A DNA stretch of 64,000 nucleotides from Promethearchaeota archaeon (GCA_048938005.1 JBHLMQ010000003.1:109014-173013), one strand, 5' to 3'. Positions 52,971 through 55,903 are shown, counted from the first letter of the stretch. A program made the numbers and translations. The notes: generated by a model not told the origin, from the letters alone.

Positions 52971-54200
52971 TTATTTATCTTTCTTAATTTCGACTTTAAT
53001 TAAATTATAAACTCTTGTTCCTAGTCCAATTTCCTCAGCTGCTTTTAATTGCAGCTGCCAATGTTTTGATTCTTTTCCATCTGGATTCATATCCATCTCA
53101 CCTGATTCAGGATCAAAACGAGGGGTATGAGAAAACCATTCAAAAGGTCCTTTTGATGGAATATTTTTAACCTCAGAGAGAATTGAATGTGGATTGATTG
53201 AAGATTTATGTATGAGATCTACAGTTGCTTGATCTAATGCAACAGGATCTAAAGAAGCTAAAATCCCTATATCTGGAACAAACGGAACGTCTGAACCTCC
53301 TGTACAATCACATTGATATGTGATATCTATAGCATAATTAAGATAAAAGATTTTATCTTTTCCAAAATAGTCAACTACTCCTTTGGCATTATCTACAAAT
53401 CCATTAATAAAATCCTCTCTTGTAGATGATCCTGCTCCAATCACCCCTTTATCACATATAGATCTACACATATAGCAATAACGGCACTTATCCCAATCCT
53501 TTTTAAGAACTTTATTAACTGTTTTACTTAAAGCACCAGTTGGACAAACTTTTATACATTTATCACAATCTTCAACACATTTATCTAAATCATAATCAAA
53601 TTTTGTGCCCAGATGAGCTCGGATTTTTTGGCCTTTTGCCACAGAACCAATACCTAAGTTTTTCAAAGCACCTCCAAAGCCAGCTCCAGCGTGTCCTTTA
53701 AAATGGGATGCTAATATTATATAATCAAATTCTCTTAAACGTCCAGCAACAAGAATTTCATCAAATCTCTTTCCATCAATTTTTTGAACGTTATAATCAA
53801 TACCATAAGGCCCATCCAACATAATAATAGGCGTACCCATTGTTTCTCCCGTAAAACCATGTAATAATGCAACTTTTAAATATTCTTCTTCATTTGCCCT
53901 TCCAGAATATTCAGTATGAATTCCTGAAATGTTCTCAGGCAATCCCCAACCACAAGATTCTGCTACTGAAGGAACTCCTCCTATATCTTTAACGTAATCG
54001 CATAAAAATCGTATATAACTTGGACGGAGATATCTTGTATTTTCTAAAGCTCCAAAATGTGTTTTAATTACTACTTTTTCCCCACTTTTAATTCTCTGCT
54101 TAATTCCAAGCTTCTCTAGAGCTAAAGGACCCTTAAACTTGCTCATACTCTGTTCATGAGAGTGAGTTCGAGCTGTAAAATAAAATACATCTGACGTCAT
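52971..54200 (-). CDS. DUF362-family Fe-S protein
   Basis: IKTHFG, SHFKGH..AGFGGALKNLGIG, inserted ferredoxin, CDC, DIGILASLDPVALDQA. Confidence 0.85.
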   Translation of the reverse strand: MTSDVFYFTARTHSHEQSMSKFKGPLALEKLGIKQRIKSGEKVVIKTHFGALENTRYLRPSYIRFLCDYVKDIGGVPSVAESCGWGLPENISGIHTEYSGRANEEEYLKVALLHGFTGETMGTPIIMLDGPYGIDYNVQKIDGKRFDEILVAGRLREFDYIILASHFKGHAGAGFGGALKNLGIGSVAKGQKIRAHLGTKFDYDLDKCVEDCDKCIKVCPTGALSKTVNKVLKKDWDKCRYCYMCRSICDKGVIGAGSSTREDFINGFVDNAKGVVDYFGKDKIFYLNYAIDITYQCDCTGGSDVPFVPDIGILASLDPVALDQATVDLIHKSSINPHSILSEVKNIPSKGPFEWFSHTPRFDPESGEMDMNPDGKESKHWQLQLKAAEEIGLGTRVYNLIKVEIKKDK

Positions 54201-54350
54201 TTCCCTTAAATGTTAAAAAGTCCTATTTAATTCGTACAAATATTAAGAGTTTTAAAGTTAACTCAAAAAATATTTTAAAACTAATTAATTCTATTAATAT
54301 AATATATCAACACAATAATGACTCTGAATAAAAAATAGGATGGTATTATA

Positions 54351-54610
54351 ATGGCTCGCTGCCCAGAAAGTGTCTGGCTCGATGCCTAAACCTGAAATGC
54401 GGAGGCTTTATGAAATACCATTCAGCCATAAAACAAGTTGTTTGTCAATCTTGTGGACTTTCGCTTACAAGACATGAACTGGATGGATATTGGAAAAAGG
54501 TAAGGAGTGAAAATATTACAGAGGTAGATGATTTGCAAAAAAAGAAAAATCGACGAAAGGAATGGCTTGAATGGTATAGTAAATCTAAATCCGAGAAAGA
54601 AAGTTATTAA
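54351..54610 (+). CDS. Small zinc-ribbon protein, split by a 29-nt intron (exons 54351-54368 and 54398-54610; 76 aa spliced)
   Basis: Spliced MARCPE-CGGFMKYHSAIKQVVCQSCGLSLT restores the first CxxC of the ribbon; SD-like AGGATGGT lies upstream. Confidence 0.8.
54369..54397 (+). other. Putative relaxed BHB-type mRNA intron (29 nt)
   Basis: CTGC CCAG AA^A GTGTCTGGC-TCGAT-GCCTAAAC CTGA AA^T GCGG: central helix has 3 of 4 pairs, 4-bp exon stem; the unspliced frame hits TAA. Confidence 0.75.
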
Positions 54611-54706
54611 CCCAAGCTTGAATAAGAAATTCTAAAAAAAAATTGAATTCTATTTAGAAATCAGCAAAAAAAAGAGTCGTATTGTTTTAAACTTTTAGGG
54701 TATTAA

Positions 54707-55903
54707 TTAACTGCCAAATTTTTTTTCTAAGATATCATCCAATAACTCTAATAGTTTTGTTGCAGGTATATCTAGCAGAGTTATCTCTAAATGCCTTCCA
54801 CGAGTTGCATCTTCGATCCTTACAGTTTTTGAAGCAACAATTTTTAATTGAGTAAGTTGACGTACATATTTTCTAAAACTCATTTTTACATGTGGTTCTA
54901 TAGAATAATTCTCGCATATTACTTTATATTCATCAAATGCATCATCTACTAATGTAAAGGGTGTATCTGTGTTAATTAATGATCTCGTAATCCCATGCAG
55001 AGCTAAAAGTTCTTGGTCTTTTAATTGATCTACAATATCATTTCTGAATGTTGGATACACATCATTTGAAGCTTCTCTAATTATATCTGCTGTAATATGA
55101 TCCAAACCTTCCTTATCACAATATGAACCACTTTTTCGTAGGATCTCGATGCCATGTCGCATGTTTTTATGATCTACTACGATTTGAGCAATCATCGTTA
55201 AAAGGTTAAAGTTATCAATAACATTTTCCCTTAATGCAAGTTCACTACGATATTCTAAGATTTGCATAGATTCTTCAAAATCATAGGGTTTAAGTAGAAT
55301 TTTTTCATTTAATCTACTTAATATTCTCTCATTTTCTATTTTCATCCAATCTTTACTTCTTGAAACTAAAAGTAATGATAACTTAGCATTTTGATGACCA
55401 AATGTTTCAGCGATGTCTAAAAATGCAAGTACTTCATCTGGCTTTAATAGGTGAATCTCATCAATAATTAATAACATGTATCCCTTTTCCCGAATTAGTT
55501 GCGAGAGAATTAATTTTAACGCCTCATCGTCACTGAACCCACGTCCGCTACCATGCTGATATTTAGCGAGGAGCTCTCTGATTATCTTACTTTTGGAACG
55601 AAAATTAATGCAATTAAAATATTCTAAGAATAGTTTAACATCATTTTCGATTGCTATAGTTTTAAAATGTTTACCAAAAAAACGTGCAGTAACTGTTTTT
55701 CCTACTCCACCTTTCCCTAAAATTAAAAAATTGATGGAAGGTTGTTCTTTTTCTTCTAAAATCCGCCGATAATTGAAAATTAATGATTTTAGAGCATCAT
55801 CACGACAATGTAACTTTTCTGGGACATAACTCGAATCAAGGGAACTCGCTTGTCGAAAAACTGATTTCTTCATGAATTGCTTTCTGAATCCATCCTCATC
55901 CAT
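54707..55903 (-). CDS. cdc6: Cdc6/Orc1 replication initiator family protein
   Basis: LDSSYVPEKLHCRD, GKGGVGKT, FNC, IIDEIH, PYD...ILEYR, C-terminal wHTH with TRGR. Confidence 0.9.
   Translation of the reverse strand: MDEDGFRKQFMKKSVFRQASSLDSSYVPEKLHCRDDALKSLIFNYRRILEEKEQPSINFLILGKGGVGKTVTARFFGKHFKTIAIENDVKLFLEYFNCINFRSKSKIIRELLAKYQHGSGRGFSDDEALKLILSQLIREKGYMLLIIDEIHLLKPDEVLAFLDIAETFGHQNAKLSLLLVSRSKDWMKIENERILSRLNEKILLKPYDFEESMQILEYRSELALRENVIDNFNLLTMIAQIVVDHKNMRHGIEILRKSGSYCDKEGLDHITADIIREASNDVYPTFRNDIVDQLKDQELLALHGITRSLINTDTPFTLVDDAFDEYKVICENYSIEPHVKMSFRKYVRQLTQLKIVASKTVRIEDATRGRHLEITLLDIPATKLLELLDDILEKKFGS

Follow-up and report, generated by a model that had tools for sequence, protein, structure and literature searches.

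The pre-mRNA of cbf5 in Crenarchaeota is said, after the work of Watanabe in 2002 and of Yoshinari in 2006, to carry a bulge-helix-bulge (BHB) intron. This intron has been followed through Desulfurococcales and Sulfolobales (Yokobori 2009, PMC2738675), and an account of Haloferax volcanii HVO_1309, whose 5' UTR contains a 46-nt BHB intron documented by circRNA-seq and in vitro cleavage, describes cbf5 as the only archaeal mRNA BHB intron reported before that case, as of 2020 (PMC7714728). Within tRNA genes, non-canonical introns of Asgard and TACK archaea have been described as substrates of an (alpha-beta)2 EndA with an L1/CSL loop (PMC5829648; PMC11291895; 10.64898/2026.10.13.758758), and an EndA of this architecture with the L1 loop has been reported for Asgard archaea (PMC5829648). 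Apart from crenarchaeal cbf5, essentially no BHB introns have been published from within the protein-coding sequence of archaea, and a full-text literature search, with most subscription journals outside its scope, found no published Asgard protein-coding BHB intron.

The locus considered here lies in a 64,000-nt stretch of DNA from a Promethearchaeota archaeon (GCA_048938005.1, JBHLMQ010000003.1:109014-173013), referred to below as the window, in which positions 54369–54397 probably form a BHB pre-mRNA intron of a small zinc-ribbon gene. Very probably this insert is of the same kind as the crenarchaeal cbf5 intron, which is rare in archaeal protein genes. As described for cbf5, the candidate intron is short, interrupts an archaeal protein-coding gene and places a BHB at the exon-intron borders; the genome encodes a hetero-oligomeric EndA, as do the cbf5 hosts; presence among relatives is patchy, as with the lineage-specific loss of the cbf5 intron, and gene callers mis-predict the gene. 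Unlike cbf5, the host gene encodes a putative 76-aa zinc-ribbon protein, belongs to the Asgard phylum and has an exon 1 of only 18 nt, the central helix of the motif contains three pairs and a mismatch in every copy, and several sequence families of four lengths occupy one site within one genus. Moreover, splicing of cbf5 was shown experimentally, whereas that of the zinc-ribbon gene is predicted from sequence. Like HVO_1309, as described, the insert would be a case in which the tRNA splicing endonuclease acts on an mRNA and not on tRNA or rRNA, but the HVO_1309 intron resides in an untranslated leader and restores no reading frame (PMC7714728). The non-canonical tRNA introns of Asgard and TACK archaea, to judge by their descriptions, are similar in size range, relaxed motif and enzyme type (PMC5829648; PMC11291895; 10.64898/2026.10.13.758758), but here the host RNA is a messenger.

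Exon 1 (ATG GCT CGC TGC CCA GAA, on the plus strand) is followed, 29 nt past its final GAA, by TGC GGA GGC TTT ATG in the frame of an annotated 66-aa ORF (54410–54610), and without splicing the exon-1 frame comprises 12 codons before reaching a TAA (54387–54389) inside the insert (Table 1). These elements were recovered at the coordinates given in the preliminary description, which had placed a 29-nt intron inside the first CxxC of a zinc-ribbon gene next to cdc6; its observation that the ORF-track protein retains only one CxxC (CQSC) was borne out, and Pfam matches identify the neighbour as cdc6. In most of the loci inspected, whether interrupted or not, a GGTAT-type motif precedes the ATG by 5–9 nt, and is a putative ribosome-binding site. 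Further downstream, the internal ATG at 54410 may serve as the start of a truncated product translated from unspliced RNA, and the balance between the full-length protein and this knuckle-less 66-aa form, initiated at the internal GGAGG-ATG, could depend on whether the intron is retained or removed. Of the flanking genes, the upstream DUF362 gene appears unrelated to the insert. The zinc-ribbon and Orc1/Cdc6 genes are adjacent in 46 of 49 loci of the genus, and also in six of seven loci with 1.5-kb flanks from other families of this taxonomic order, in which both proteins are only ~40% identical to those of the window; such adjacency may reflect a functional link or a position near an origin.

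Table 1. Features of the interrupted zinc-ribbon locus and its surroundings, in window coordinates; a slash within a bulge marks the predicted cut
Feature	Position	Strand	Remark
DUF362 protein, 409 aa, with 4Fe-4S ferredoxin motifs; upstream neighbour	52971–54200	-	Pfam
Leader with GGTAT-type motif	54338–54346	+	just 5' of the exon-1 ATG
Exon 1, 18 nt, MARCPE (first Cys and Pro-Glu of the CPxC knuckle)	54351–54368	+	
BHB outer helix h, 5' strand CUGC	54359–54362	+	4/4 pairs with 54399–54402
BHB central helix H, 5' strand CCAG (Pro codon and G of Glu)	54363–54366	+	
5' bulge AA/A	54367–54369	+	predicted cut between 54368 and 54369; geometry from sequence
Candidate intron, 29 nt	54369–54397	+	insert missing at exactly this junction in uninterrupted relatives
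Inner helix h', GU (54370–71) with AC (54390–91), closing the hairpin	54370–54391	+	
BHB central helix H, 3' strand CUGA	54392–54395	+	3/4 pairs with CCAG
3' bulge AA/U	54396–54398	+	predicted cut between 54397 and 54398
Exon 2, CGGFMKYH..., with second knuckle CQSCG	54398–54610	+	stop codon 54608–54610
BHB outer helix h, 3' strand GCGG	54399–54402	+	one pair is G-U
GGAGG, then internal ATG 54410 (start used by gene callers) 4 nt on	54401–54412	+	read from sequence
Orc1/Cdc6 gene, convergent neighbour	54707–55903	-	Pfam Cdc6_lid, AAA_22, Cdc6_C

A search with the exon-2 protein returned 67 homologues, few of them with a source name (Lokiarchaeota, Promethearchaeota or Hermodarchaeota archaeon), and 38 were fetched. 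The preliminary description had proposed a homologue alignment in which an N-terminal first CxxC should appear, and this knuckle is indeed present and uninterrupted in 26 of the 38, those nearest the window starting with MARCPECGGFMKYH, which is exactly the product predicted after removal of 54369–54397. Five others are read-through calls (...WPAAQKV...LKCGGF) in which exon 1 continues in a shifted frame through the insert, and the remainder comprise five proteins starting at MKY, one starting further in, and a fragment. Residues R3, C4, P5, E6 and C7 (RCPEC) are invariant in the 23 aligned full-length homologues, as are all four cysteines of CPEC...CQSC in full-length orthologues. Removal of the insert restores this conserved reading frame, giving the N-terminus of the uninterrupted orthologues, and the predicted spliced protein corresponds to a conserved 76-residue protein with a putative zinc ribbon. 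At the DNA level, the joined exons of the window agree with L009 and L031, two uninterrupted loci, across the 36 nt compared. An AlphaFold model of a full-length orthologue (mean pLDDT 77.5) shows a zinc ribbon for residues 1–30 (pLDDT 82–90), with strands at residues 10–14 and 19–22, followed by a long helix for residues 31–66. The best Foldseek matches are the zinc ribbons of TFS4, TFIIB and PriA over ~29 residues, none with E <= 0.001, and Pfam zinc-ribbon matches to the host protein all fall under their cut-offs. The 66-aa database proteins were rejected as proof of an insert: the entries P0057 (72 aa) and P0061 (62 aa), identical from MKYE onward and each listed with a longest contig of 107,140 bases, are probably alternative gene calls on one uninterrupted sequence, so that short proteins starting at MKY are not in themselves evidence of an insert.

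The distribution of the insert was established by reading the junction in all 49 gene-bearing genomes among the 54 of the window's genus. In 16 of these 49 an insert lies exactly between GAA and TGC or TGT, with a length of 28 nt (n = 5), 29 nt (n = 7) or 31 nt (n = 4), and the remaining 33 are uninterrupted, two of these (L053, and L056 at a contig end) having been called by eye because their pattern was unparsed. Four other families of the same taxonomic order contributed 13 loci, none of which is interrupted; nine begin MA[RK]CPECGG and four have an unbroken CPEC. A metagenome set of 31 loci, 30 of them inspected upstream and L108, a match of 37% identity, left out, contributed 27 loci reaching the junction, four of which carry an insert, in one case of 32 nt; some of these contigs may derive from the same organisms as the genus genomes. 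The resulting 20 interrupted loci thus have inserts of 28, 29, 31 or 32 nt, none a multiple of three, and in each of them the exon-1 frame, if left unspliced, either stops early or continues out of frame. The inserts form at least five sequence families, and every uninterrupted locus shows a clean GAA/TGY junction. In the 31-nt family (L002, L007, L034, L088) the last six intron bases read ATGGNN, which creates an in-frame ATG two codons before Cys-7 (M-E/D/V-CGGF...) and a possible alternative start on unspliced RNA. In L017 and L034 the intron begins with T and not A, so that their unspliced RNA reads GAA TGT and encodes MARCPEC before a stop.

The pattern of variation along the 20 interrupted loci differs between the presumed coding and non-coding segments. 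Exon 1 varies at four of its 18 sites, all of them third codon positions, and encodes a single peptide, MARCPE, in every locus. The 24-nt leader immediately beside it is variable at 20 sites, the largest intron family (type A, 29 nt) at 14 of 29, and the first 60 nt of exon 2 contain 23 variable sites, 18 of which are third positions. If the exon-1 frame is followed into the insert, the peptide tails that result after MARCPE differ in every intron family. This coding-type conservation of exon 1 is the strongest evidence for the predicted intron. Neither a relic nor a simple upstream ORF would preserve such a pattern.

Folding of the interrupted RNA offers a second view of the insert. The register put forward in the preliminary description, with CTGC/GCGG as exon stem, CCAG/CTGA containing one C-A mismatch (C54363 against A54395), and bulges AAA and AAT, was reproduced as stated, and the inner hairpin of the window is further closed by pairing of GGC (54376–78) with GCC (54384–86). 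In all 16 interrupted loci of the genus the outer helix forms three or four of its four pairs (96.9% of cells paired) and the inner GU...AC pairs are kept, with other intron families presenting hairpins of differing sequence at the same place. The central helix forms three of four pairs in these 16 and in the four metagenome loci, and never all four; the mismatch is at the outer end of the helix in 13 genus loci and at the inner end in three, and one metagenome locus with CCG for proline still forms a G-U pair. The third base of the 5' bulge is A or U among the loci, and the two intron bases of the 3' bulge read AA, AG, AU or UU. Because the central helix is never fully paired, the motif is relaxed and not canonical: 3-nt bulges flank a helix of three pairs and a mismatch in 20 of 20 loci, departing from the strict hBHBh' form, and the bulge-helix unit, helices h and h' and symmetric cuts after the second base of each bulge are those of the relaxed motif. 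Two other placements were discarded by hand, as shifting both cuts by -1 or -2 yields the same product but no helix, and a perfect 4-bp register available in the 31-nt family gives an out-of-frame product and fails in L034.

Several measures bear on how far this fold could be fortuitous. In an alignment of the 16 genus loci 88.8% of the cells are paired, vs 18–41% when the 3' strand is slid by 1–3 columns. Among random site/length draws from the genome an equally good fold, defined by an outer helix of 4/4 pairs, a central helix of at least 3/4 and two inner pairs, was obtained in 1,509 of 1,995,383 (7.6e-4), and relaxed BHB folds occur by chance at a rate of 5e-3 per site and length in this genome. 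The Pro-Glu codons within the helix read CCAGAA in all 16 interrupted vs 14 of 31 uninterrupted genus loci (Fisher p = 1e-4, with kinship ignored), the other uninterrupted loci using CCC, CCG, CCT or GAG instead. No double-sided covariation was found in the core pairs across the aligned loci, where the exon side is fixed by codons, and all 500 of 500 column shuffles reach the observed values, since most columns are invariant. Energetically, the BHB-constrained fold coincides with the minimum free energy (MFE) structure in three of 20 loci and lies at most 1.3 kcal/mol above it in 10 of 20, with larger gaps of 3.2 kcal/mol in the window and 7.0 kcal/mol in L087. A 65-nt segment of the window is not unusually stable (MFE -15.9 kcal/mol, z = -0.39), as 61 of 200 shuffles fold as well.

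The BHB could form by pairing of the exon bases CUGC-CCAG-AA and U-GCGG with A-GU...AC-CUGA-AA of the intron, producing in order the outer helix, a 3-nt bulge, the central helix of three pairs plus mismatch, a second 3-nt bulge and the inner hairpin. A two-subunit EndA would then cut after the second base of each bulge, and RtcB would join the exons, such that CCA GAA/TGC GGA restores the first CPECG zinc knuckle; in the predicted spliced RNA the exon-1 end CCAGAA is followed directly by TGCGGAGGC. We infer that cleavage and ligation of this pre-mRNA do occur.

The components for such a reaction are encoded in the genome, which contains two EndA paralogues (PF01974 matches of 104.7 and 73.8 bits) and an RtcB ligase (568 bits). 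As judged by reading their sequences, one paralogue of 198 aa carries the catalytic Tyr, His and Lys residues, and the other, of 205 aa, is without the catalytic His. The closest solved relative of the catalytic paralogue is the Aeropyrum pernix EndA alpha subunit (3p1z_B, E = 1.8e-35), and its KPR aligns with the K44-P-R46 loop of the A. pernix protein, in which the K44/R46 loop is reported to confer broad substrate specificity (PMC3241643). The pair is consistent with an (alpha-beta)2 enzyme carrying an L1 loop, and the broad-specificity EndA that the relaxed fold had been thought to need is thereby accounted for by a catalytic and a non-catalytic paralogue with a KPR loop as in A. pernix. 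In this genome, which is 95% complete, Aragorn detects only 16 tRNAs, of which 12 contain introns, and Rfam yields 27 tRNA matches, 25 over the gathering score and ~13 spanning 90–124 nt. These tRNA genes carry introns of 9–65 nt, and such heavy interruption has also been reported for other Asgard lineages. In tRNA-Met(CAU) and tRNA-Glu(UUC) canonical-position introns form an outer helix of 4/4 and a central helix of 3/4 pairs, with the mismatch at the inner end in the former and the outer end in the latter, the same two forms as are found in the mRNA insert.

Only two RNA runs showed a trace of the sequence, each with a 0.04 share of sampled words. One placed no contigs; the other placed four, from relatives and less than 90% alike, at 54403–54577 and 54621–54657. 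Three of these contigs begin at 54403–54409 and one covers 54621–54657, so that all are downstream of the junction; none shows a joint.

An insert at this junction need not be an intron, and a distinctly improbable alternative is that it persists as a permanent scar, such as a local duplication of the gene's start that has since decayed. Translation would then begin downstream, at MKYH (54410) or at M[E/D/V]CGG in the 31-nt family, the first knuckle would be partly or wholly lost, and exon 1 would be a relic or a short upstream ORF. The 66-aa proteins delivered by gene callers conform to this view, as does the ATG of the 31-nt family, in frame and two codons ahead of Cys-7, and the 11/12 match of intron positions 54375–54386 to exon-1 positions 54352–54363 is what a decayed duplication could leave behind. 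The GGAGG four nt before ATG 54410 likewise suits a downstream start, but it occurs equally in uninterrupted genes, where the same letters encode GGFM, and so is not specific to interrupted ones. A relic should decay, yet MARCPE persists in 20 of 20 loci with third-position changes only, beside a leader and an intron varying at 20/24 and 14/29 sites, respectively, and the diverging peptide tails are not those of a maintained upstream ORF. The truncated protein would, moreover, be without two of four invariant cysteines, and the kept BHB and the CCAGAA bias would be left unexplained. Inactivation of the whole gene in the insert-bearing lineages is very improbable indeed. At the DNA level the gene does have a broken frame, as a pseudogene would, but exon 2 evolves in a coding-like manner (18 of 23 variable sites at third positions in its first 60 nt), none of the 20 loci shows a further frame break, and the interruption is always at one junction and always foldable.

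That ribosomes cross the insert by programmed frameshifting, or by translational bypassing of the kind known from T4 gene 60, while the RNA stays unspliced, is hardly credible. In its favour, the GAA codon directly before TGC in L002 equals the take-off GAA of exon 1, and in the window the downstream frame is open through the insert. Across the loci, however, the landing codon varies (AAA, AAG, GAA, GAU, GUU), the shift needed at inserts of 28/31 nt would be opposite to that at inserts of 29/32 nt, and a stop in the downstream frame lies inside the insert of L002, L014 and L088. The frameshift product would bear 9–10 unconserved residues within the invariant CPEC knuckle, and neither a conserved slippery site nor matched take-off and landing codons distinguish these loci. 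A self-splicing group I/II intron or a member of another Rfam family was also rejected: no Rfam match with E <= 1 was found in 53900–54900 on either strand, and 29 nt is far too short.

For the proposed BHB intron, a history can be sketched from a Cdc6 protein tree of 46 rows, in which 14 of the 16 interrupted loci had cdc6 in reach. Interrupted and uninterrupted loci are interleaved on this tree, implying at least nine changes, of which well-supported branches force only two, and a basal clade of five rows is without the insert. Repeated precise loss is the simplest reading, because one intron family sits in several separate places. No second copy of the intron was found in the genome, and the idea of a mobile element was set aside, as the best other genomic match amounts to 15–16 nt inside a coding stretch (...LPKPEIK...) and was taken as chance. 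Elsewhere in the genome, the best match to mevalonate kinase occupies a single open frame of 316 aa in which no interruption was seen.

How the intron arose is a more tentative matter. Intron positions 54375–54386 match exon-1 positions 54352–54363 at 11 of 12 positions, a likeness equalled by two of 2000 shuffles and by none of 122 other windows of the locus, and the intron end CCTGAAA/TGCGG echoes the CCAGAA/TGCGG of uninterrupted genes. The intron may have originated on the spot when the 5' end of its own gene underwent a small tandem duplication, a doubtful proposal since the signal is weak or absent beyond the locus of the window: in other type-A loci 125 to 1528 of 2000 shuffles score as well, and in other intron families 353 to 1949 of 2000. 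According to this scheme the intron copy TGGCTCGATGCC...CCTGAAA would still resemble exon 1, TGGCTCGCTGCC CAGAA, each copy would provide one half of the pseudo-symmetric BHB, consisting of a helix strand plus an AA bulge, and a single A-to-T change would have made CAG/CAG into the pairing CAG/CUG. The intron copy at 54375–54386 is also letter-for-letter identical to the exon-1 variant of loci L012 and L015. In L021 the 29-nt intron holds a further internal copy of CCTGAAAGTA, a repeat by which CCWGAAA occurs three times within 40 nt, suggesting repeated local slippage or duplication at this site. A 2026 preprint on Asgard tRNA introns tested gene-to-gene copying, mobile elements and reverse transcription, and its accessible text makes no mention of tandem duplication (10.64898/2026.10.13.758758).

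If true, a duplication origin would represent de novo gain of an archaeal intron with neither a mobile element nor a donor intron, and would explain why introns are born at sites whose exon is able to contribute one half of the motif. The Asgard case itself, if true, would mean that messages, too, are edited by the machinery for tRNA splicing in those archaea that are most closely related to eukaryotes. Micro-exons of only 18 nt escape gene callers, and the protein that they call here is short of half its zinc site. Comprising 20 alleles that are interrupted at one junction and many that are not, the locus offers a natural series spanning several intron families, through which the gain, maintenance and precise loss of BHB introns may be addressed, together with the tying of codon choice to RNA structure.
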